From NCBI GenBank assembly GCA_903831305.1, contig CAIKXE010000002.1, positions 15,934 through 79,933 on the forward strand: 64,000 nt of DNA. The letters run 5' to 3'. The notes beneath the pieces were generated by a model that made no database searches, was not told the origin of the DNA, and saw nothing but the letters and a program-made list of their open reading frames with translations. The translations under genes were made by a program, and so were the position numbers. This document shows, piece after piece, positions 3,906 through 62,375 of this stretch (its first letter is position 1; each line of letters starts with the position of its first letter). Source of the stretch: an uncultured bacterium (GTDB lineage Bacteria > Patescibacteriota > Minisyncoccia > Phycocordibacterales > GWA1-40-21).

Positions 3906-5030
3906 ATGATTAATATTCCGGATTTTATAAAAAGTATTTTTTCCAGTGATCAGGGTAAAAGTGTGCTCGGTATTGATATTGGTCCTTCTTCTATCAAGAT
4001 CGTTCAGCTGAAAAAGAGAAAGGGCCGAGCCATCCTTGAGACTTATGGTGAATTATCACTTGGTCCATATGCGGGGCTAGAAATCGGACGGTCCACTAAT
4101 CTGACCACCGAACAGCTTGCTCAGGCGGTAGTGGATGTTTTGCGTGAGTCTAATGCCACCACTAACCGTAGCGGTATTTCTATTCCGATGGGGTCAAGCT
4201 TGGTTTCCTTTATCAAATTACCCAAGGTAGACGAAAGCCAGTTGGCCCAGATGATTCCACTGGAGGCACGTAAATATATTCCAGTTCCTATTTCGGAAGT
4301 CAGTATTGATTATTTAGTTATTCCCAGAAATGACAGTATCGCTTCCGAATATCAAAACAGTGAAGAAAAACCTGAGGAGAAAACTATTGATGTCCTCTTG
4401 GTGGTTATTCACAATGACGCCATGGCACGTAATAAAGAGATCACCCGCATTGCTAAGCTGGAGACGACTTTTTCCGAAATTGAAATCTTTGGTTCTATGC
4501 GTTCTGTTTTAGATCAGGGTACAGCACCACAGATGATTATTGATTTTGGTTCTGGTTCTACTAAGATCTATATTGTGGAGCGGGGGATATTGCGGGTCTC
4601 GCATATGATCAGTCGGGGTTCACAGGATATTACTCTCGCTATTTCCAAATCACTCGGTATTAGTGTGGATGAAGCTGAGAAAATGAAACGCGAGAGAGGA
4701 CTACTAAAAAAAGAAGGTGAGCAGATGGATATTAATGAAATCACTTCTTTGACCTTGGATTATATTTTCTCTGAGGTTGGCCGGGTGTTACTGAATTATC
4801 AGAAGAAAAACGAGCGGAATATCAGTAAAGTGTTTTTGACCGGTGGTGGGGTCCTGCTCAAAGGCTTGAGAGAGAAGGCAGAAACTAGTTTTAATGTGCC
4901 AGTGGTGATGGCGGATCCTTTTTCCAAGGTGGAGTTTCCGGCTTTTTTGGATGCCGTTTTAAAACAAGCCGGGCCATCTTTTTCTGTGGCTATTGGTTTG
5001 GCTTTGAGACGCTTGCAAGATTCGGAGTAG
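3906..5030 (+). CDS. pilM: Type IV pilus assembly protein PilM (actin-like ATPase fold)
   Basis: Begins GIDIGPSSIKIVQLKK...; 374 aa; lies at the head of a pilM-pilN-pilO arrangement. Confidence 0.85.
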   Translation: MINIPDFIKSIFSSDQGKSVLGIDIGPSSIKIVQLKKRKGRAILETYGELSLGPYAGLEIGRSTNLTTEQLAQAVVDVLRESNATTNRSGISIPMGSSLVSFIKLPKVDESQLAQMIPLEARKYIPVPISEVSIDYLVIPRNDSIASEYQNSEEKPEEKTIDVLLVVIHNDAMARNKEITRIAKLETTFSEIEIFGSMRSVLDQGTAPQMIIDFGSGSTKIYIVERGILRVSHMISRGSQDITLAISKSLGISVDEAEKMKRERGLLKKEGEQMDINEITSLTLDYIFSEVGRVLLNYQKKNERNISKVFLTGGGVLLKGLREKAETSFNVPVVMADPFSKVEFPAFLDAVLKQAGPSFSVAIGLALRRLQDSE

Positions 5031-5724: not shown

Positions 5725-6288
5725 ATGAATATTATAACATCAATCATTTTAATAATCATTTCAATCGGGACATTTTTTATCTATATTGATCCAACCTATC
5801 AAGGTGCTAATTTACCCAATGATAAACTGAGCGTAAAAGATTTGCTAGCCAAAGATGCTAAATACCAAAAAGCGCTAGCCGATACTAATATGATTCGTGA
5901 AAACAGACAGAAGTTACAAGATAAAAAAGCCCAATTTGATTTAGTTGATCTTGAGCGCCTAGAAAAGCTTTTACCAAATAATATTGATAATATCAAATTA
6001 GTAATTGATATGAATCAGATTGCCCAGAGCCATGGTTTGGTGCTTAAAAATATTAAGTTGGACACGGCAGCCAAGTTAGAAACTGGCAAGATCGGTCAAG
6101 ACAACAGTAAATACGGCACTGTCGGGCTTTCCTTTACTGTCACTTCTTCCTATGACAACTTTCAGAATTTCTTGGGTGATTTAGAGAAGAGTCTCCGTTT
6201 GGTAGACATCACTGATCTATCAGTTACAAGTAATGATACCGGTGTTTATGATTTTTCTGTCGGTCTGAAAACTTATTGGTTAAAATAA
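5725..6288 (+). CDS. pilO: PilO-like bitopic membrane protein
   Basis: N-terminal TM plus a coiled-coil region; third gene of the pilMNO order. Confidence 0.6.
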   Translation: MNIITSIILIIISIGTFFIYIDPTYQGANLPNDKLSVKDLLAKDAKYQKALADTNMIRENRQKLQDKKAQFDLVDLERLEKLLPNNIDNIKLVIDMNQIAQSHGLVLKNIKLDTAAKLETGKIGQDNSKYGTVGLSFTVTSSYDNFQNFLGDLEKSLRLVDITDLSVTSNDTGVYDFSVGLKTYWLK

Positions 6289-6298
6289 TATTATTAAT

Positions 6299-6610
6299 AT
6301 GAATCAGAAAACCAAACAAATAATAATAGCTATCATTATCATCAGTATTGCTTTTGTTATTTTTAAGGTTTCTTTTCCTAACGGCGGGGTAGAGACTGAT
6401 ACCGCCCTGGTAACTGATAATAATGCTCCGGCTGAAGTGATTGACGGGCAGATCATACTTACCTTATTGGAAAATTTAAAGAGGGTTACCTTGGATGAGT
6501 CTATTTTTGCGGACGCAGTTTTTACCAGTTTGATCAATTTTGAAAAACCGATAGAGTCTCAACCTGTTGGCCGACAAAATCCATTTTTGCCTATCGGTCG
6601 GGAATTTTAG
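6299..6610 (+). CDS. Small membrane protein in the pilus operon (possible PilP analogue)
   Basis: 103 aa with an N-terminal TM; sits between pilO and pilB. Confidence 0.4.
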   Translation: MNQKTKQIIIAIIIISIAFVIFKVSFPNGGVETDTALVTDNNAPAEVIDGQIILTLLENLKRVTLDESIFADAVFTSLINFEKPIESQPVGRQNPFLPIGREF

Positions 6611-6634
6611 TTTACCTTTTTAAGTTTAACCTGT

Positions 6635-8377
6635 ATGAGTATATTAGATATTTTAGCCCAAAAAGAAGTAATAAAAAGGGGTGATATTGGCCGGATCAAG
6701 ACTGAGGCTGAATCCGCCGGTGTTCCTCTGGAGCAGATCCTGATAAAATTTGGCGTAAATGAAGATGCTGTTTTAGATGCCAAAGGCGAGTATTATAATA
6801 TTCCGACCAGAAACCTAGAAGGACAGCAGATCCCTTTTTCTATCTTAAAAAATATTTCTGAAGACTCGGCGGTCCATTATAATTTCGTGCCGATCGGGGT
6901 AAAGGACGGGCTATTAGAGGTTGGTATTGTGGATCCTGAAAATATTGAAGCCCGAGATGCGCTAAATTTTATTGCTAGTAAGCTCAATATGCCATTTAAG
7001 CTTTATTTGATCTCAATGGCTGATTTTCAAAAGGTGCTAGATGATTATAAAGGTCTCTCGGGGGAGGTGACAGAGGCCTTGACCGAGCTTCAGTCTGAAT
7101 TAGCCCAAGACTCCGCTAATGTGGAAATCGAGGCCAAGGCGGCAGCTGAGGATCCATTTGAAACCAAGATCGTGGAGGATGCCCCAGTGACCAAGATAGT
7201 ATCAACTATTTTACGTTATGCGACTGAGGGCGGGGCTTCAGATGTTCATATTGAACACATGAAGGACAAGATTCGCGTTCGTTACCGAGTGGACGGCACC
7301 TTAAATACCAGCATTCTTTTACCAGTAGCTGTGCATTCCGCGGTAGTCGCTAGAATCAAGATTTTGTGCAACATGAAGTTGGATGAGAAACGTAAGCCCC
7401 AAGACGGTCGTTTTTCGGCCAAGATTGATGGCCGTAAGATTGATTTTCGTGTTTCTACTTTTCCCACTTTTCATGGAGAGAAAGTCGTGATGAGAATTTT
7501 AGATCAAGAAAAAGGTGTCCAGTCTTTGGACCAGATCGGCTTATCAGAAACTAATTTGGCCTATATCCGTGATGCCATCAGACGGCCTTACGGGATGATT
7601 TTGATTTCTGGTCCAACCGGTTCCGGTAAAACTACCACCATGTATTCTATGTTGAATGAAATTGATAAGGAGGGTTTGAATGTTTTGTCACTGGAGGATC
7701 CGATCGAATATAATATTGAAGGAGTATCTCAATCACAGGTTTTTGCAGACATTGGCTATACTTTTGCCAATGGTCTCCGTACTACTTTGCGCCAGGATCC
7801 AGATGTGATCATGGTCGGAGAAATCCGTGATAAGGAAACAGCTCAGCTGGCGGTGCAAGCGGCTTTGACCGGCCATTTGGTTTTAGCTACTATCCATACT
7901 AATAATGCGGTGGGGGTTATTCCACGACTCATTGATATGGGGGTTGATCCGTATTTGATTGCTCCGACTCTGATTTTAACTATGGCTCAGCGCTTGGTGC
8001 AGACTTTATATCCGGGCACGGGCAAGGCTGTAGCCGTCGATGGTAGCATAAAGGCTATGTTAGATAAGGAGTTTCAGGATTTGCCAGCTGAATATAAGAG
8101 CAAATTACCTAAATTTGAGTCAGTCTATGATCCAGAGGCTTCGGCCATGTGTCCGACCGGTATCAAGGGCCGAATAGCCGTTTTTGAGGCCTTTAAGATG
8201 AATAAAGAGATTGAAAAGCTTATTTTGACAGGTCCGACGGAGGCTAATATTTTTGAATCCCTTCGTAAGCGGGGGATGCTCACCATGAAGGAAGATGCTA
8301 TTATTAAAGCCTTGAATCGGCAAGTACCTTTTAGCGAGGTGGACGGTTTAGGGATGATGGAAGATGAGGAGATCTAG
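6635..8377 (+). CDS. pilB: Type IV pilus assembly (extension) ATPase PilB / GspE family
   Basis: Walker A GPTGSGKTT, ASDVHIE...RYRVDG motif and a C-terminal tetracysteine-like region; 580 aa. Confidence 0.9.
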   Translation: MSILDILAQKEVIKRGDIGRIKTEAESAGVPLEQILIKFGVNEDAVLDAKGEYYNIPTRNLEGQQIPFSILKNISEDSAVHYNFVPIGVKDGLLEVGIVDPENIEARDALNFIASKLNMPFKLYLISMADFQKVLDDYKGLSGEVTEALTELQSELAQDSANVEIEAKAAAEDPFETKIVEDAPVTKIVSTILRYATEGGASDVHIEHMKDKIRVRYRVDGTLNTSILLPVAVHSAVVARIKILCNMKLDEKRKPQDGRFSAKIDGRKIDFRVSTFPTFHGEKVVMRILDQEKGVQSLDQIGLSETNLAYIRDAIRRPYGMILISGPTGSGKTTTMYSMLNEIDKEGLNVLSLEDPIEYNIEGVSQSQVFADIGYTFANGLRTTLRQDPDVIMVGEIRDKETAQLAVQAALTGHLVLATIHTNNAVGVIPRLIDMGVDPYLIAPTLILTMAQRLVQTLYPGTGKAVAVDGSIKAMLDKEFQDLPAEYKSKLPKFESVYDPEASAMCPTGIKGRIAVFEAFKMNKEIEKLILTGPTEANIFESLRKRGMLTMKEDAIIKALNRQVPFSEVDGLGMMEDEEI

Positions 8378-8430
8378 GGTGCTGTACGAGGTCTGTTTTA
8401 TTAGTTAATAATTATGGTATAATTAAAAGT

Positions 8431-8826
8431 ATGGAAAATATAAAACCAAAGGTACTAATTGTAGATGACGACAAGTTCTTGATAAATATGTATTCTATCA
8501 AGTTTAACAAAAGGGAATTTGAAGTAAATTCGGCAATGTCTGGTGAAGACGCTATTAGCAAGCTCAAGGGTGGCTATACGCCGGATATTATTTTATTGGA
8601 TATCGTGATGCCGGTGATGGATGGTTTTGAGATTTTGGAGGCTATTCGGACTAATAATCTGTCACCGAAGTCTCTGATCATCATGCTTACTAATCAAGGC
8701 CAGCTTACGGACATTGAGCGCGCAAAGAGCTTTGGTATTAACGGCTACATTATCAAGGCAACTACTATTCCTTCTGAGGTGGTAGCCGAGGTAGAAAAGA
8801 TTTATAATTTGGCAAAAAAATCATAA
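8431..8826 (+). CDS. Single-domain response regulator receiver (CheY-like; PilG/PilH-like)
   Basis: LIVDDD...DIILLDIVMPVMDG receiver motifs; 131 aa; no histidine kinase seen in the window. Confidence 0.8.
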   Translation: MENIKPKVLIVDDDKFLINMYSIKFNKREFEVNSAMSGEDAISKLKGGYTPDIILLDIVMPVMDGFEILEAIRTNNLSPKSLIIMLTNQGQLTDIERAKSFGINGYIIKATTIPSEVVAEVEKIYNLAKKS

Positions 8827-20602: not shown

Positions 20603-20673
20603 TCTTACTTTTGTGCCGATGGATGGAATTGAACCATCTTTTGAGGCTTATGAGTCCCCCGTTCTACCATTGA
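20603..20673 (-). tRNA. tRNA-Met (CAT) elongator-type (or tRNA-Ile2)
   Basis: Minus strand GCCGATG-TA-GTTC-AATGGTA-GAAC-G-GGGGA-CTCATAA-GCCTC-AAAA-GATGG-TTCAATT-CCATC-CATCGGC-A. Perfect acceptor, D and T arms with canonical GG and TTC loops; one mismatch at the base of the anticodon stem. Confidence 0.75.
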
Positions 20674-20812
20674 ACTACATCGGCGTTATTTAATTTTCCC
20701 TAGAATCTACCAACAACTACATCGGCGTTATTTAATTTTCCCTAGAATCTACCAACAACTACATAGGCATATTACTTTACCCTATGTCCAACACCAATAA
20801 CTACATCAACAT
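20664..20812. repeat. Tandem 42-bp repeat array (3.5 copies) of tRNA-Met 5'-fragment plus promoter-like sequence
   Basis: Period-42 units CTACATCGGCGTTATTTAATTTTCCCTAGAATCTACCAACAA, two identical and two degenerate. On the minus strand each unit reads TTGTTG-18nt-TAAATA-ACGCCGATGTAG, a -35/-10 pair followed by the first 12 nt of the tRNA and a degenerate D arm. Confidence 0.8.
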
Positions 20813-20894
20813 ATTATGTCTGCTTAATATAGCATTTTGAGGCAAAAAATCAAACCAGTATTGCTATTTGGCCAAAAAATGATACTATGTGATT

Positions 20895-20965
20895 AGCGGG
20901 GTAGAGTAACAGTAATTCGCGAGGCTCATAACCTTGAGATGTACGTGCGAATCGTACCCCCGCAA
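20895..20965 (+). tRNA. Initiator-like tRNA-fMet (CAT) with non-canonical D and T loops
   Basis: AGCGGGG-TA-GAGT-AACAGTA-ATTC-G-CGAGG-CTCATAA-CCTTG-AGAT-GTACG-TGCGAAT-CGTAC-CCCCGCA-A. It has a 1-72 mismatch and an A11-T24 pair like bacterial initiators. It lacks G19 in the D loop and TTC in the T loop. Confidence 0.55.
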
Positions 20966-21065
20966 CAATTAATTATTTTTGTGATCTAGTACTTGTTATT
21001 GGTGTATTTTATTGCTCAAATGTAGATTTTGTGTATAATAATGAGGATCTCATTTTTTTGAGATT

Positions 21066-21380
21066 CATCGCCACGCGGGCGTAGCTCAACGGTAGAGCAC
21101 TCCCCTGTAGACGTGCAGCTTTCCGCCGAGATGCGGATTGAAACTCTCTGGGATAACGGTGAAGGCTAAGTTCCATTTTGGAATATGCGAACACCGTGGG
21201 AACTCTTGTGAGATTTGGGGCCATCGGTCCCGAGTGAAACGAGGGAGCGCCGTAGAGACTAGATACCGGAGTACCCTAACTCACTGTGTGTGAAGGGTAA
21301 AGATATAGTCCATGCCACTATGAAAATAGTGAATTAGTGCACGGGAGAGGCCGTGGGGTCAGCACCCATCGCCCGCGCCA
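21066..21380 (+). tRNA. tRNA-Asp (GTC) interrupted by a group I intron; exons 21066-21099 and 21340-21380, CCA encoded
   Basis: 5' exon GCGGGCG-TA-GCTC-AACGGTA-GAGC-A-CTCCC-CTGT; 3' exon CAC-GGGAG-AGGCC-GTGGG-GTCAGCA-CCCAT-CGCCCGC-G-CCA. The spliced anticodon loop would be CTGTCAC, with G10, C38 and G73 as in tRNA-Asp. Confidence 0.75.
21100..21339 (+). ncRNA. Group I self-splicing intron (about 240 nt) in the tRNA-Asp anticodon loop
   Basis: Contains the conserved group I core elements R (GTAGAGACTAGA, 21253-21264) and S (AAAGATATAGTCC, 21297-21309), which pair as P7 (GACTA/TAGTC). The 5' exon ends in U and can pair CUGU with the intron GCAG at 21106-21109 including a U-G wobble (P1). The intron ends in G. 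There is a P9-like hairpin CCACTATGAAAATAGTG. Confidence 0.75.
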
Positions 21381-21383
21381 GTA

Positions 21384-21406
21384 AAAGCCCTGAATAAGGG
21401 CTTTTC
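21384..21406 (+). terminator. Hairpin with flanking A/T tracts directly after tRNA-Asp
   Basis: AAAAGCCCTGAATAAGGGCTTTT. Confidence 0.5.
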
Positions 21407-21409
21407 TGT

Positions 21410-21587
21410 TGCGCGGGCGAAGCAAGCAAATGATTTTGCTTGCGTTGGGTTGCTGACCGGCGGAGCCAGATTTTTTCAGTAGAAAAAATAGGTGAGCCGG
21501 TGTCCAACCCGAGCCGAGCGACGGCGAGGGGAGAGGTGCGGACAAGCACCCACATTGTTTTGTGCGAGGGAGAGTCCATCGCCCGCG
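21410..21587 (+). ncRNA. Structured ncRNA-like element (about 178 nt) closed by a tRNA-Asp acceptor-like stem; identity unknown
   Basis: The 5' end CGCGGGCGAAGC and the 3' end GGGAGAGTCCATCGCCCGCG copy the tRNA-Asp acceptor and anticodon-stem sequences but lack D and T arms. The interior folds into at least four hairpins. It is followed by the terminator at 21591-21625. Confidence 0.45.
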
Positions 21588-21590
21588 GTT

Positions 21591-21625
21591 AAACCACCCC
21601 AGAAGGGGTGGTTTTTGTTTTTTAA
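21591..21625 (+). terminator. Rho-independent terminator
   Basis: AAACCACCCCAGAAGGGGTGGTTTTTGTTTTTT. Confidence 0.85.
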
Positions 21626-25250: not shown

Positions 25251-27728
25251 ATGTTTAATTTTTTTTCAAAAAAAGGTATGACAGTGGTGGAGACGGTAGT
25301 GGCCGTTGGTATCTTTGCTATTTTGTCTACTGTTGCTTATGAAATCTATATTGGGGTGGATAATCTGGTCAAGCGGGCGGATCAAAAGTCTACCGCCTTA
25401 TGGTTAGCTGAGGAAGGAATAGAAGCCGTAAGGTCAATTCGGGACGAAAATTTTACTAGCCTAGCTGATGGTACTTATGGTCTATCAGCCTCGGGTAATA
25501 AATGGGTTTTGGCTGGTAGTTCTGATGTGGTGGATAATTATACGCGTGTTTTAAATATTTCCACTATCTCGGCAAACGAAAAAGATGTCTTGGCTACTAT
25601 CAGTTGGAATTATAAAACCCAAAATAATTCTTTAAGCTTGAATAGTCGGCTGACAAATTGGCATAAGGTGGATTATAATGCTGGCTTGACGGTGGAAAAA
25701 GTGATTATTAATCACGGTGGTAATGCTACCTCGACTACCTTTGCTCCTTACACAGTGAGTATTACGGTCGGTACTAGCACCACTGATACGGTGGTAGAAG
25801 CGGGAGCCACTAATCAGTTTATGCCTGGTACTTATACGGTGACGGAAACAGCAGATCCAAATTATACTCAGTCCTTTGATCTGGATTGTAACGCCCTAGG
25901 TGAGGTGACTGTAGCCACCAGTAGTACCAAGGTCTGCCGTATTATCAATGAAGAAAAGCCGGCTAAATTACGGGTAAACAAAACCGTTATTAATCATGGT
26001 AATAGCAAGGTTGTTTCAGACTTTTCCTTACGAGTGGATTCTAACCCCGTTACTTCTGGGGCTTTAAATACTTTTGACTCTGGAGTGCATACTGTTTCTG
26101 AAGTGGTGGATGCTGAGTATGATACGACGATCGGCGGTGATTGTAATAGTGGTGGTTTAGTCACTCTGGTGCCTAATGTGACTAGGACCTGTTCGGTCAC
26201 TAATGAAGAAAAGTTATCTTATGTGACGGTTTATAAAAATATAATTAATCATGGGGGGACCGCGGTTACGGCAGATTTTGCTCCTTATAAAGTGGGGGCC
26301 ACGACTGTGACCTTAGGAGCTACGACCACCAAAAATTCCGGCACCTATACCGTGACAGAGACGGTGGATCCGGCTTATACTCAAACTTTTAGTGGGGATT
26401 GTAATGGTTCTGGTTCTATCACCCTCATTGGTGGTATGACTAAGACTTGTACCATTACTAACGAAGAAAACTTTGTCGTTCCGACGGTGACGATTCCTAC
26501 TGTTACCTCCATCACTCAGACTACGGCTACTTTGGGAGCGACAGTGGCTTCCTTGGGCGTGCCACACAGTATTTCCGCTCGGGGTACTTGCTGGGGGACA
26601 ACATCAAATCCAGTTACTAACTGTGTGGCAGAAGGCGGAACGACTACCGGTGTCTTTACTCAGGCTCGCACCGGATTCACCGCGGGTACGACTTACTACT
26701 ATCGCGGTTACGCTACAAATAGCACCGGGACTGGTTATTCTGCCGATGGGACCTTTACTACTTTGACGGCCAATGTGGTGCCAACAGTCACTACGCCGAC
26801 GGCAACTGCTATTACTTCAAATTCTGCTACTTTGGGGGCGGATGTTACTTCTCTTGGTATTCCCGCTACTATTACGGCTAGGGGTACTTGCTATGGTACA
26901 ACACCAAATCCAGTTACTAACTGTGTGGCAGAAGGTGGAACTACTACCGGAGTTTTTACTCAGGCTCGCACCGGATTCACGGCGGGTACGACTTACTACT
27001 ATCGCGGTTACGCCACCAATAGCACCGGGACGGGTTATTCAGCCGATGGGATGTTTGCCACTGTTGCTATCTGCTCAGTGGCAGCCGCAACGGTGGGTAC
27101 TCCTACGACTTATGATAATGCCGGATCTGTTTCGGCGGTGGTGGCTAAGCCAACTGGTGTGACTCAGGGTGATATTATGTTTGCTCAAGTTTTTCATTTT
27201 AATAGTACGGATCGATTTACTACCACACCAGCGGGTTGGACGGAAATTGGTCGTCATAAAAATGGTAACTATAATCAAGCTCTGCTCTATAGGGTCGCCA
27301 CCGCTGGTGAGGGAGGAGTTTCAAACTATACCTTCAGTCTTGTTTCAAGTTCTAAATTAGCGGTTACTATTTCTGCCTATCGCGGTTGTTTTGACATTGC
27401 AAATCCGATTGATAGTTTCTCTAATGTGGAGTATGTGGTAAATAATACTACCTATCGGGCTGGTAGTATTAATTTGTCAGCCGCTAGCACCACCGTTTTA
27501 ATGTTTCCAAGTGTTTATAATGGTTCGGTTAGAACTTTTTCTCCTCCTTTGACACAAGGTGGGGGCTGGACCGAGGATCATGATCATGGAACAAATACGG
27601 CTGACTTCTCTCGAGCCGGCTATCGTAAATTTATTTCCAGCGCAGGAGCTACCGGTGTGATAGACAGTATAGGAAACTCTAATAATAATGCTAAGCATGC
27701 TTTTGCTGTCGGTTTGCATCGTTTATAG
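25251..27728 (+). CDS. Large (825 aa) prepilin-leader protein with repeated beta-sandwich domains (pilus-associated adhesin candidate)
   Basis: N-terminus KKGMTVVETVVAVGIFAIL is a prepilin-type motif. Three about 90-aa repeats (VINHGG...TVTETxDPxYTQxFxxDCN) are followed by two about 95-aa near-identical repeats (TCxGTTxNPVTNCVAEGGTTTGVFTQARTGFTAGTTYYYRGYATNSTGTGYSADG). Confidence 0.75.
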   Translation: MFNFFSKKGMTVVETVVAVGIFAILSTVAYEIYIGVDNLVKRADQKSTALWLAEEGIEAVRSIRDENFTSLADGTYGLSASGNKWVLAGSSDVVDNYTRVLNISTISANEKDVLATISWNYKTQNNSLSLNSRLTNWHKVDYNAGLTVEKVIINHGGNATSTTFAPYTVSITVGTSTTDTVVEAGATNQFMPGTYTVTETADPNYTQSFDLDCNALGEVTVATSSTKVCRIINEEKPAKLRVNKTVINHGNSKVVSDFSLRVDSNPVTSGALNTFDSGVHTVSEVVDAEYDTTIGGDCNSGGLVTLVPNVTRTCSVTNEEKLSYVTVYKNIINHGGTAVTADFAPYKVGATTVTLGATTTKNSGTYTVTETVDPAYTQTFSGDCNGSGSITLIGGMTKTCTITNEENFVVPTVTIPTVTSITQTTATLGATVASLGVPHSISARGTCWGTTSNPVTNCVAEGGTTTGVFTQARTGFTAGTTYYYRGYATNSTGTGYSADGTFTTLTANVVPTVTTPTATAITSNSATLGADVTSLGIPATITARGTCYGTTPNPVTNCVAEGGTTTGVFTQARTGFTAGTTYYYRGYATNSTGTGYSADGMFATVAICSVAAATVGTPTTYDNAGSVSAVVAKPTGVTQGDIMFAQVFHFNSTDRFTTTPAGWTEIGRHKNGNYNQALLYRVATAGEGGVSNYTFSLVSSSKLAVTISAYRGCFDIANPIDSFSNVEYVVNNTTYRAGSINLSAASTTVLMFPSVYNGSVRTFSPPLTQGGGWTEDHDHGTNTADFSRAGYRKFISSAGATGVIDSIGNSNNNAKHAFAVGLHRL
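26480..27065 (+). repeat. Intragenic tandem duplication (2 x about 285 bp, about 88% identical) within the 825-aa gene
   Basis: Nucleotide blocks 26494-26760 and 26781-27050 align nearly base for base. Confidence 0.8.
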
Positions 27729-61505: not shown

Positions 61506-61510
61506 AAAGT

Positions 61511-61539
61511 TTGACTTCTATAATAAAAAGGTGTATAAT
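61511..61539 (+). promoter_or_regulatory. Near-consensus sigma70 promoter (TTGACT, 17 nt, TATAAT) upstream of the GC-rich ORF
   Basis: Read directly: TTGACTtctataataaaaaggtgTATAAT. Confidence 0.5.
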
Positions 61540-61653
61540 AGTAGTTAGATAGTTACAAGATGTTTGTTAGCCGTAAATGAGCGGATGCTCGTTCGGCTGT
61601 GTGTCAGGTGGACACTGTCCAAGACTGGACAAGTCCAAAGTGGGAGAAGGACA

Positions 61654-62229
61654 ATGAGCAACGAACTGATGCTCGATGTCGGTCAGGCGAATGAGCTGAA
61701 GATGGCTTTTCGTCGTGAGGGTTCGTGGACGAATGAGCAGATCAAGAGGTTCTGTGAACTCCGTGGTTTGCTCAGCCAGGTTCTGGAGGTGCTCGAAGGC
61801 CGCGCTGAGATCAAACCCATGGAGTATGTCGTGGATCTCGACGCCGCTCCGTTCATCCCGAATGGTTGGACGGTGGAGTCCCACAAGCAGGGTGGACAGT
61901 GGAAGTATGATGCCACGAAGGTGTCGCTCTACCTGTCCGAAGGCCAGAAGGGCGGCAAACGTCTGGTCGGCACCAAGCTCCGCGAGGAACTGGAAAGCCT
62001 GCCAGTCATGAACGCCAACTTGTTGGAGTTCTACCTGGCTCACCCCCACCTCATTCCCGAAGAATGGAAAGGTGAGTATATCTTCTTCTGGGGAACGGTC
62101 TACCGTGACGCCGATGGCGACCTCTACGTTTGGTGCCTCTTCTGGAACGGCGAGAGGTGGTACTGGGGCTGCCGCTGGCTTGAGGACGACTGGGCCGGCT
62201 ACGACCTGGCGGTTCTGCTCGGCGAGTAG
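61654..62229 (+). CDS. Hypothetical protein (191 aa) encoded in a roughly 60% GC island; probable horizontally acquired gene
   Basis: High-GC3 codon usage (agc aac gaa ctg atg ctc gat gtc ...), SD GGGAGAAGG 6 nt upstream, Trp-rich C-terminus (FFWGTVYRDADGDLYVWCLFWNGERWYWGCRWLEDDW), followed by a GC-rich terminator. Confidence 0.6.
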   Translation: MSNELMLDVGQANELKMAFRREGSWTNEQIKRFCELRGLLSQVLEVLEGRAEIKPMEYVVDLDAAPFIPNGWTVESHKQGGQWKYDATKVSLYLSEGQKGGKRLVGTKLREELESLPVMNANLLEFYLAHPHLIPEEWKGEYIFFWGTVYRDADGDLYVWCLFWNGERWYWGCRWLEDDWAGYDLAVLLGE

Positions 62230-62285
62230 CCAAGGCACCAGCCCAACAGGTAAAAAGATAGATACCTGGAAATTCTATCGCTCAC

Positions 62286-62321
62286 AACACCCCTCGCGGC
62301 TTCGGCCACGCGGGGTGTTTT
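62286..62321 (+). terminator. GC-rich Rho-independent terminator after the foreign ORF
   Basis: ACACCCCTCGCGGCTTCGGCCACGCGGGGTGTTTT. Confidence 0.7.
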
Positions 62322-62375
62322 ACGTTTAGTATTTTCTTGCTTTTTTTGGCTATATTTGGTAAGCTACTGTGACAT

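Follow-up and report, generated by a model that had tools for sequence, protein, structure and literature searches.

Diversity-generating retroelements (DGRs) are abundant in the Patescibacteria, where their targets have been reported as being without recognisable domains (PMC8144416, PMC5758913). The described systems closest to the locus considered here are found in this very host group, i.e., the DGRs of the Patescibacteria (CPR), which Roux et al. 2021 (PMC8144416) treat as 'clade 2' and for which Wu et al. 2018 (PMC5758913) give a CPR set with the unclassified variable-repeat (VR) classes UVR1-6. CPR DGRs are reported to have, as a tendency, a single adjacent target (Wu et al. 2018, PMC5758913), and a Treponema DGR has been described with seven extra, remote targets (PMC5758913). 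In the DGR of the Bordetella phage BPP-1, an IMH and a hairpin/cruciform serve in target recognition and lie directly downstream of the VR with no counterpart after the template repeat (TR); the structure consists of one stem of 7-10 bp capped by a GRNA loop (Guo et al. 2011, PMC3240598).

The window analysed here (the whole stretch of 64,000 nucleotides, or 64 kb) carries a gene for a 191-aa protein whose family shares several features with the CPR DGRs: a cellular rather than viral residence, cassettes wedged among housekeeping genes, a small target protein devoid of a signal peptide, transmembrane segment or Pfam domain, and a C-terminal VR with adenine-specific TR/VR mismatches. Unlike the CPR DGRs, however, the window has the target gene alone; the family is set beside UVR1-6 by description. 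In lying away from a reverse transcriptase (RT) and a TR the gene is comparable to the remote targets of Treponema, although for those a matching TR belongs, by definition, to the genome that carries the target. Further, its product has no detectable sequence similarity to Mtd of phage BPP-1 (1yu0) or TvpA of Treponema denticola (2y3c) and, in contrast to these, is much smaller (191 aa), lacks an export signal and is neither a phage tail-fibre protein nor a lipoprotein. The best explanation of the locus, to which we assign a probability of about 0.72, is that it represents a solitary, probably fixed DGR variable-protein cassette. In the literature to which we had access, which was limited, no description was found of a GC excess restricted to target and TR, of the leader RNA or of the heptamer array presented below.

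Composition and coding frame of the GC-rich island

The whole window has a GC content of 41.7%, as against 57.0% for positions 61580-62330 and 58.0% for the ORF at 61654-62229. The richest 576-bp stretch in the window begins at 61671 (58.7% GC, with the runner-up at 53.6%; window mean 41.7%, standard deviation 3.8%). An earlier note on this DNA had placed a rise from about 40% to about 60% GC at roughly 61580 and the return at roughly 62330; in 50-bp steps the content goes up at ~61575 and down at ~62325, so that these borders hold while the level is to be corrected to 57-58%. The next-highest stretches of the window lie at ~21041-21600 and ~26521-27100 (53-54%), the first of them adjoining tRNA genes at 20614-20965.

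Such an island could in principle be an assembly chimera or a contaminant, or it could be a structured RNA or an antisense gene instead of a plus-strand ORF; indeed, GC-rich pieces of AT-rich genomes are commonly structured RNAs, and an antisense ORF of 223 aa does exist at 61567-62238. The order prfA-ORF-rpsB has, however, been assembled independently from at least eight samples with identical junctions, which excludes a chimera, and the four contigs for which DNA is available are 99.99-100% identical to the window, so the segment is real, as the earlier note had advised checking. The plus frame of the ORF at 61654-62229 shows GC contents of 0.61, 0.37 and 0.76 at the three codon positions; the last value compares with 0.40±0.06 (maximum 0.50) in the 61 other long ORFs of the window and bears out the high GC3 claimed earlier. 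Relative to the gene of its 72%-identical homologue (locus L092), substitutions number 30, 14 and 55 at codon positions 1, 2 and 3, and this concentration at the third position marks the plus frame as coding. Rfam returned only tRNAs for the window at the gathering threshold and no family for the island or the canonical leader at a permissive threshold. The antisense frame is wholly open in 31 of 76 homologues, and its mean openness of 0.71 equals the expectation from synonymous-codon shuffles (0.73), in keeping with the earlier view of it as a compositional effect; this control rules out an antisense gene. Taken together, these alternatives to a real, plus-strand gene retain a negligible probability.

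A family of DGR variable proteins essentially confined to Patescibacteria

Scans of the 191-aa protein against Pfam, PHROGs and NCBIfam gave no match, and a profile search of PDB sequences gave a single, irrelevant one. In contrast to the earlier verdict of a Trp-rich protein without recognisable motif, a search of protein collections recovered 383 homologues of 185-200 aa with 50-72% identity, and the Trp-rich C-terminus proved to correspond to a DGR variable region. All homologues bearing a name belong to Patescibacteria (Paceibacteria, Nomurabacteria, Parcubacteria). A profile search (E <= 1e-3) extended the family to 4569 cluster representatives, with 370 loci in GTDB species genomes and only two distant relatives among 2.9 million viral contigs; hence, the family is essentially confined to Patescibacteria.

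The relationship to DGRs is apparent from loci with longer flanks. At L005, the last 123 nt of the gene are repeated 329 nt downstream with 84% identity, and every mismatch falls at an adenine of the downstream copy; this locus and L008 possess the full set of VR, TR, Avd (NF033474 / PF22296) and RT (RVT_1). In about half of the examined loci the last ~125 nt of the gene constitute a VR, with a TR ~330 nt downstream (313-398 nt in 36 related loci) followed by Avd and RT. Across 38 TR/VR matches, mismatches sorted by TR base number 603 at A, 16 at C, 25 at G and 18 at T, i.e., 603 of 662 are at adenines, the remainder coming mostly from two matches to a second paralogue. As this near-exclusive location at TR adenines is the defining DGR signature, the family can be recognised as one of DGR targets. 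Additionally, the differences between two alleles that are 90% identical (P0074 and P0122) are almost confined to the VR. The alignment of the VR displays a scaffold of the form FFWGTxYR..DG.L.VR.L.W.G.RW.W...WL...W....PAA, which is interleaved with ~15 near-random columns.

In the window gene the VR equivalent, delimited by the family alignment, spans 62101-62226 (aa 150-191), where the invariant scaffold alternates with hypervariable codons, all of which are NNC, the form that derives from AAC-type TR codons. Against the closest foreign TR, that of L008, this VR has 12 mismatches at A and seven at non-A positions. Judged by its sequence, the window protein is a member of the main variable (target) protein family of Patescibacteria DGRs. 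It is a small, probably cytoplasmic protein in which the N-terminal ~50 aa make up a three-helix region and the remainder a domain with a putative C-type-lectin-like fold. In this family, the RT/Avd pair copies the TR into cDNA with its adenines misread, and the mutagenised cDNA replaces the last ~125 nt of the target gene; ~15 NNC codons on the ligand-binding face are thereby randomised and the Trp/Gly/Leu/Arg scaffold stays constant.

Several variations on the family organisation were observed. The C-type-lectin-like module (profile positions ~53-188) also occurs as 2-4 tandem copies in proteins of 300-800 aa (P0244-P0248), and some loci have two adjacent paralogous family genes (L019 6386-7647; L039 10001-11478). 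The cassette order of this clade, as seen at L005 (6571-7500), is target, terminator, a ~330-nt spacer starting TAGGTGAATA, TR, terminator, an oppositely oriented avd, and RT. Only ~40 nt, terminator included, follow the TR there, which implies that the TR has the long structured RNA on its 5' side, as opposed to its 3' side in BPP-1.

Anatomy of the window cassette

The island is a self-contained expression cassette in which a single ORF is preceded by a strong promoter and a structured 5' leader of its own and followed by a terminator. It occupies 61506-62336 and lies, like all features described here, on the plus strand; its neighbours are the stop codon of prfA on the left and, on the right, the -35 box belonging to the native promoter of rpsB. 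The cassette promoter, of sigma-70 type, lies at 61511-61539, with the -35 hexamer TTGACT at 61511-61516 and the -10 hexamer TATAAT at 61534-61539 (the latter within GGTGTATAAT, 61530-61539); in a consensus scan this TTGACT-17-TATAAT arrangement matches 11 of 12 positions, and its earlier description as near-consensus is thus accurate. It was also called native in style, a point with which the data disagree: the promoter sits within the insert, and the GGTGTATAAT motif followed by GTAGNTAGATAGTT is common to the window, L092 and many further family loci. As both the promoter and the leader are shared with family members of other genomes, they came in together with the gene.

The 5' leader at 61560-61653 comprises a diverged P1-like hairpin (61569-61598), the P3 hairpin (61610-61636) and, 7 nt ahead of the ATG, a GGGAG Shine-Dalgarno motif (SD, 61642-61646) that the earlier note had correctly picked out. 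Its predicted fold has a z-score of -3.1. The structured leader preceding the gene accounts for the GC content rising ~75 nt before the ATG. Over its final ~60 nt the leader is almost identical to that of L092, and the family covariance model R1 finds only a weak match in the window (61560-61657, 16 bits, E 0.89), with P3 and the SD recognisable and P1 strongly diverged.

In the family at large, the genes are preceded by a structured leader of ~130 nt, consisting of P1, P2, a conserved single-stranded AGCCCGCUGGCA and P3 just ahead of the SD. P1 is a long hairpin with compensatory changes at 17 of its 18 pairs and with 93-97% of alignment cells paired; P2 is short. Matches of 50-119 bits to the R1 model occur immediately 5' of the gene in ~65 of ~80 family loci (e.g., L037 9874-10004; L004 5860-5995), before DGR-linked and stand-alone genes alike, and are nearly absent elsewhere in the 1.2 Mb searched. 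A second, weaker match (47 bits) was noted at L060 (6003-6152), upstream of an unrelated 177-aa ORF lying 4 kb from the family gene.

Downstream of the ORF, positions 62230-62246 hold the remnant of a post-VR array of 7-nt repeats, from which ~36-60 nt are missing relative to L092, L010, L013 and L008. The 3' UTR proper (62247-62323) begins with a CAGGUA...UACCUG hairpin at 62247-62268 and ends with an intrinsic terminator, also picked up by a terminator scan, in which the stem at 62288-62317 reads CACCCCTCGCGG-CUUCGG-CCACGCGGGGUG with a UUCG loop and is followed by a UUUU run. The GC-rich terminator mentioned earlier is therefore present. The fold of the 3' UTR has a z-score of -3.5, and both of its hairpins are kept in L010 and L008 with compensatory changes. 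The right border of the insert is given by the native rpsB promoter (TTGCTT...TAAGCT, 62337-62365), which lies outside the insert and is kept in the cassette-free L215, L216 and L218.

Insertion at the prfA-rpsB junction

The neighbourhood in the window reads obg-rpmE-prfA-[ORF]-rpsB-tsf. In L216 and L218, whose RF1 proteins are 87-88% identical to that of the window, prfA and rpsB are 44 nt apart (4985-5028) and the site is empty, reading GAGTAA-TATAG-TTGCTT. In the closest relative, L215 (RF1 95% identical), a DUF4258/DUF2283 pair occupies the identical junction (1055-1697). As relatives have prfA and rpsB either adjacent or separated by another insert, the segment at 61506-62336 represents a lineage-specific insertion, and the single-gene island perceived between these genes is substantiated: the cassette has one ORF, and the junction is empty in relatives. 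Within the lineage this junction is a hot spot of insertion that takes other small cassettes too. The DUF4258 and DUF2283 pair of L215 is toxin-antitoxin-like. The ORF list and the empty-site alignments disclosed no integrase or transposase and no direct or inverted repeats at the cassette junctions. The gene is a recent arrival in the prfA-rpsB spacer of what the names of RF1 relatives indicate to be a Paceibacterota genome, and its most likely source is another Patescibacterium.

A GC excess shared by the whole family

The earlier interpretation of the locus was that of a recent foreign gene, received from a high-GC donor outside the lineage, such as a host bacterium or a phage, and driven by a native promoter. 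The recent insertion is in line with the empty or differently occupied sites of relatives; the high-GC donor fares poorly. The compositional outlier is real and the insertion is lineage-specific, both as this interpretation would have it. However, the named homologues are all from Patescibacteria, and the nearest one, at 72% identity, resides in a similar low-GC setting. The scarcity of relatives in viral contigs (the two distant ones noted above) speaks against a phage source, as the Patescibacteria-only distribution does against a host bacterium. Further, the promoter and leader are part of the cassette.

The gene exceeds its flanks in GC in 69 of 73 loci, by 10.6 points on average (p = 5e-13), in hosts with GC contents of 33-60%. 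In 27 complete cassettes, the offset from the flanks is -2.7 for the RT, 0.0 for the spacer between variable-protein gene and TR, +7.8 for the non-VR part of the gene, +17.3 for the VR and +10.4 for the TR. The GC3 of the non-VR part of the gene is 0.66 versus 0.47 for the RT (p = 5e-5), and the excess is equal in stand-alone and DGR-linked copies. Since homologues exceed their flanks nearly everywhere while the co-resident RT is host-like, a high-GC donor is not indicated; the earlier note had itself named GC-rich homologues in relatives as evidence that would overturn its view. The GC richness is a property of the gene family and its TRs wherever they reside, not a donor fingerprint, and the foreign high-GC origin is accordingly very improbable. 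At the L008 cassette (6001-8485), for example, the target has 55% GC, the RT 31% and the host 34%; Avd is also host-like in DGR cassettes.

At four-fold degenerate sites the gene has A 0.10, C 0.47, G 0.21 and T 0.21, as compared with A 0.21, C 0.27, G 0.23 and T 0.29 in the flanks, and it is enriched in NAY codons ending in C as well as in Lys/Glu/Gln codons ending in G. Candidate explanations for the excess are a homing-related constraint, recurrent transfer of the variable-protein gene and TR with slow amelioration, and an expression-linked bias. Gene GC regresses on host GC with a slope of 0.48, and in some low-GC hosts the gene has nearly reached host composition, so that transfer followed by slow amelioration is a viable option. 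Codon bias linked to expression is unlikely to be the only cause: the GC3 of rpsB, tsf and rpmE is only ~0.50, and the enrichment extends to G-ending Lys/Glu/Gln codons. The co-divergence of target and RT, which bears on gene-specific pressure versus module transfer, gave a Mantel r of 0.54 but a Spearman coefficient of 0.12. An implication is that a strong compositional outlier of a small episymbiont genome may be a stand-alone gene for a hypervariable ligand-binding protein rather than host or phage DNA, and that GC-based calls of horizontal transfer will misread the whole family. The family-specific leader RNA and the GC excess of target and TR provide checkable leads on regulation and mechanism.

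The solitary state of the gene

No repeat of 61560-62340 was found elsewhere in the 64-kb window (blastn, word size 7), and tblastn with two family RTs and one Avd gave nothing below E = 1 in the same window. The rpsB gene starts 146 nt past the stop codon of the ORF, which leaves no room for a TR after it. A scan of metagenomes for a TR with the 3' end of the VR (CYGGCGGTTCTGCTCGGC) yielded at least 120 unrelated GC-rich matches, with no family member among the matches listed. Of the distinct loci with sufficient flank (~66), a TR is present in 38 and absent within 3-10 kb in 28, i.e., ~40% are stand-alone. The nearest relatives of the window gene are all stand-alone and differ in context, e.g., P0002 is flanked by macB and folD, and P0009 by polA and holA.

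The post-VR heptamer array and the status of the window copy

The stop codon and the terminator are separated in most family loci by 50-70 nt that contain tandem 7-nt units (CTTGGAC-like) with short inverted repeats, amounting to ~5-7 heptamers (e.g., L037 10572-10617), and no such array follows the TR. Per 80 nt, the mean number of units is 4.3 in DGR-linked loci, 0.45 in control DNA and 0 in the window. As in BPP-1, the VR is immediately followed by a conserved element that the TR lacks, and, like the BPP-1 element, the array contains short GC-rich inverted repeats such as GGACC..GGTCC. By this analogy it is a candidate homing-target element, although the single stem of BPP-1 is represented here by tandem heptamers and the window copy is without them. 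In alignment A3, the window has a 36-column gap directly after the stop codon, indicating a deletion of at least 36 nt; the array is likewise missing in about 10 other loci, mostly stand-alone ones, and is present in all but 2-3 linked loci. As the hairpin/cruciform is needed for homing in BPP-1 (PMC3240598), loss of the array should, by extension, disable homing.

The VR of the window also bears two scaffold substitutions, R160W (CGG>TGG) and P185L (CCG>CTG), both being C>T changes at non-adenine positions. Across the family, scaffold deviations average 1.83 in loci without the array versus 0.56 in loci with it (p = 0.009), and 1.19 in orphans versus 0.375 in DGR-linked loci (p = 0.018), to be compared with 2 in the window. 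The identical window protein is encoded on 15 contigs, and the only variant departs from it at positions other than the hypervariable ones; as the contigs sharing the VR are clonal (99.99-100% identical), this says little about its stability over time. The loss of the array, the two C>T scaffold substitutions and the presence of one VR allele in every assembly suggest that the window copy is probably a fixed allele that is no longer diversified and would now serve as a binding protein of fixed specificity.

The main competitor of this reading is an active remote target, whose VR would still be rewritten in trans by a DGR (RT, Avd and TR) elsewhere in the genome. The search for TR and RT covered the 64-kb window, and their presence elsewhere in the genome is compatible with its outcome. 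Non-adjacent, remote DGR targets are documented (PMC5758913), and the share of loci without local TR and RT (~28 of ~66) makes the stand-alone state a normal one for the family. The orphans L060 and L076 show 4.4% divergence outside the VR as against 11.6% within it, where every change falls at positions 1-2 of an NNC codon, and this DGR-type VR divergence is also seen between L053 and the linked L050. The exclusively NNC hypervariable codons of the window are, moreover, what A-mutagenesis predicts. Against this stand the 64 kb without a TR or an RT, the deletion of an array that is near-universal in linked loci, the absence of VR variants among 16 contigs, and the two non-adenine scaffold substitutions, both of which homing would erase unless the TR carried them. 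On balance, continued diversification from a distance is the less favoured account and rather unlikely beside that of a solitary, probably fixed cassette, though with evidence on either side. For the family as a whole, some stand-alone copies appear to be diversified in trans, and others, probably including the window copy, are array-less and drifting.

A broader proposal, which we put forward tentatively, is that the family has three cis-features of its own, namely a covarying leader RNA of ~130 nt specific to these genes, a tandem heptamer array in place of the canonical hairpin/cruciform homing signal, and a GC-rich, A-poor coding composition imposed on target and TR, with RT and Avd exempt. 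Should the array act as the homing signal and the homing chemistry require this composition, the window copy would be a natural 'retired' target; DGR-evolved binders would then be cut loose, frozen and passed around the Patescibacteria as single-gene cassettes. The comparison of loci with and without the array offers a testable handle on what makes genes homing targets in Patescibacteria DGRs.

Two observations concern apparent orphans of the family. Six of them retain the spacer start TAGGTGAATA. At L076 (4001-6633), a large serine recombinase of 546 aa (Resolvase, Recombinase and Zn ribbon) is found just past the DGR spacer start, with no TR or RT within 10 kb, so that this locus is apparently an interrupted cassette and not a true stand-alone one.
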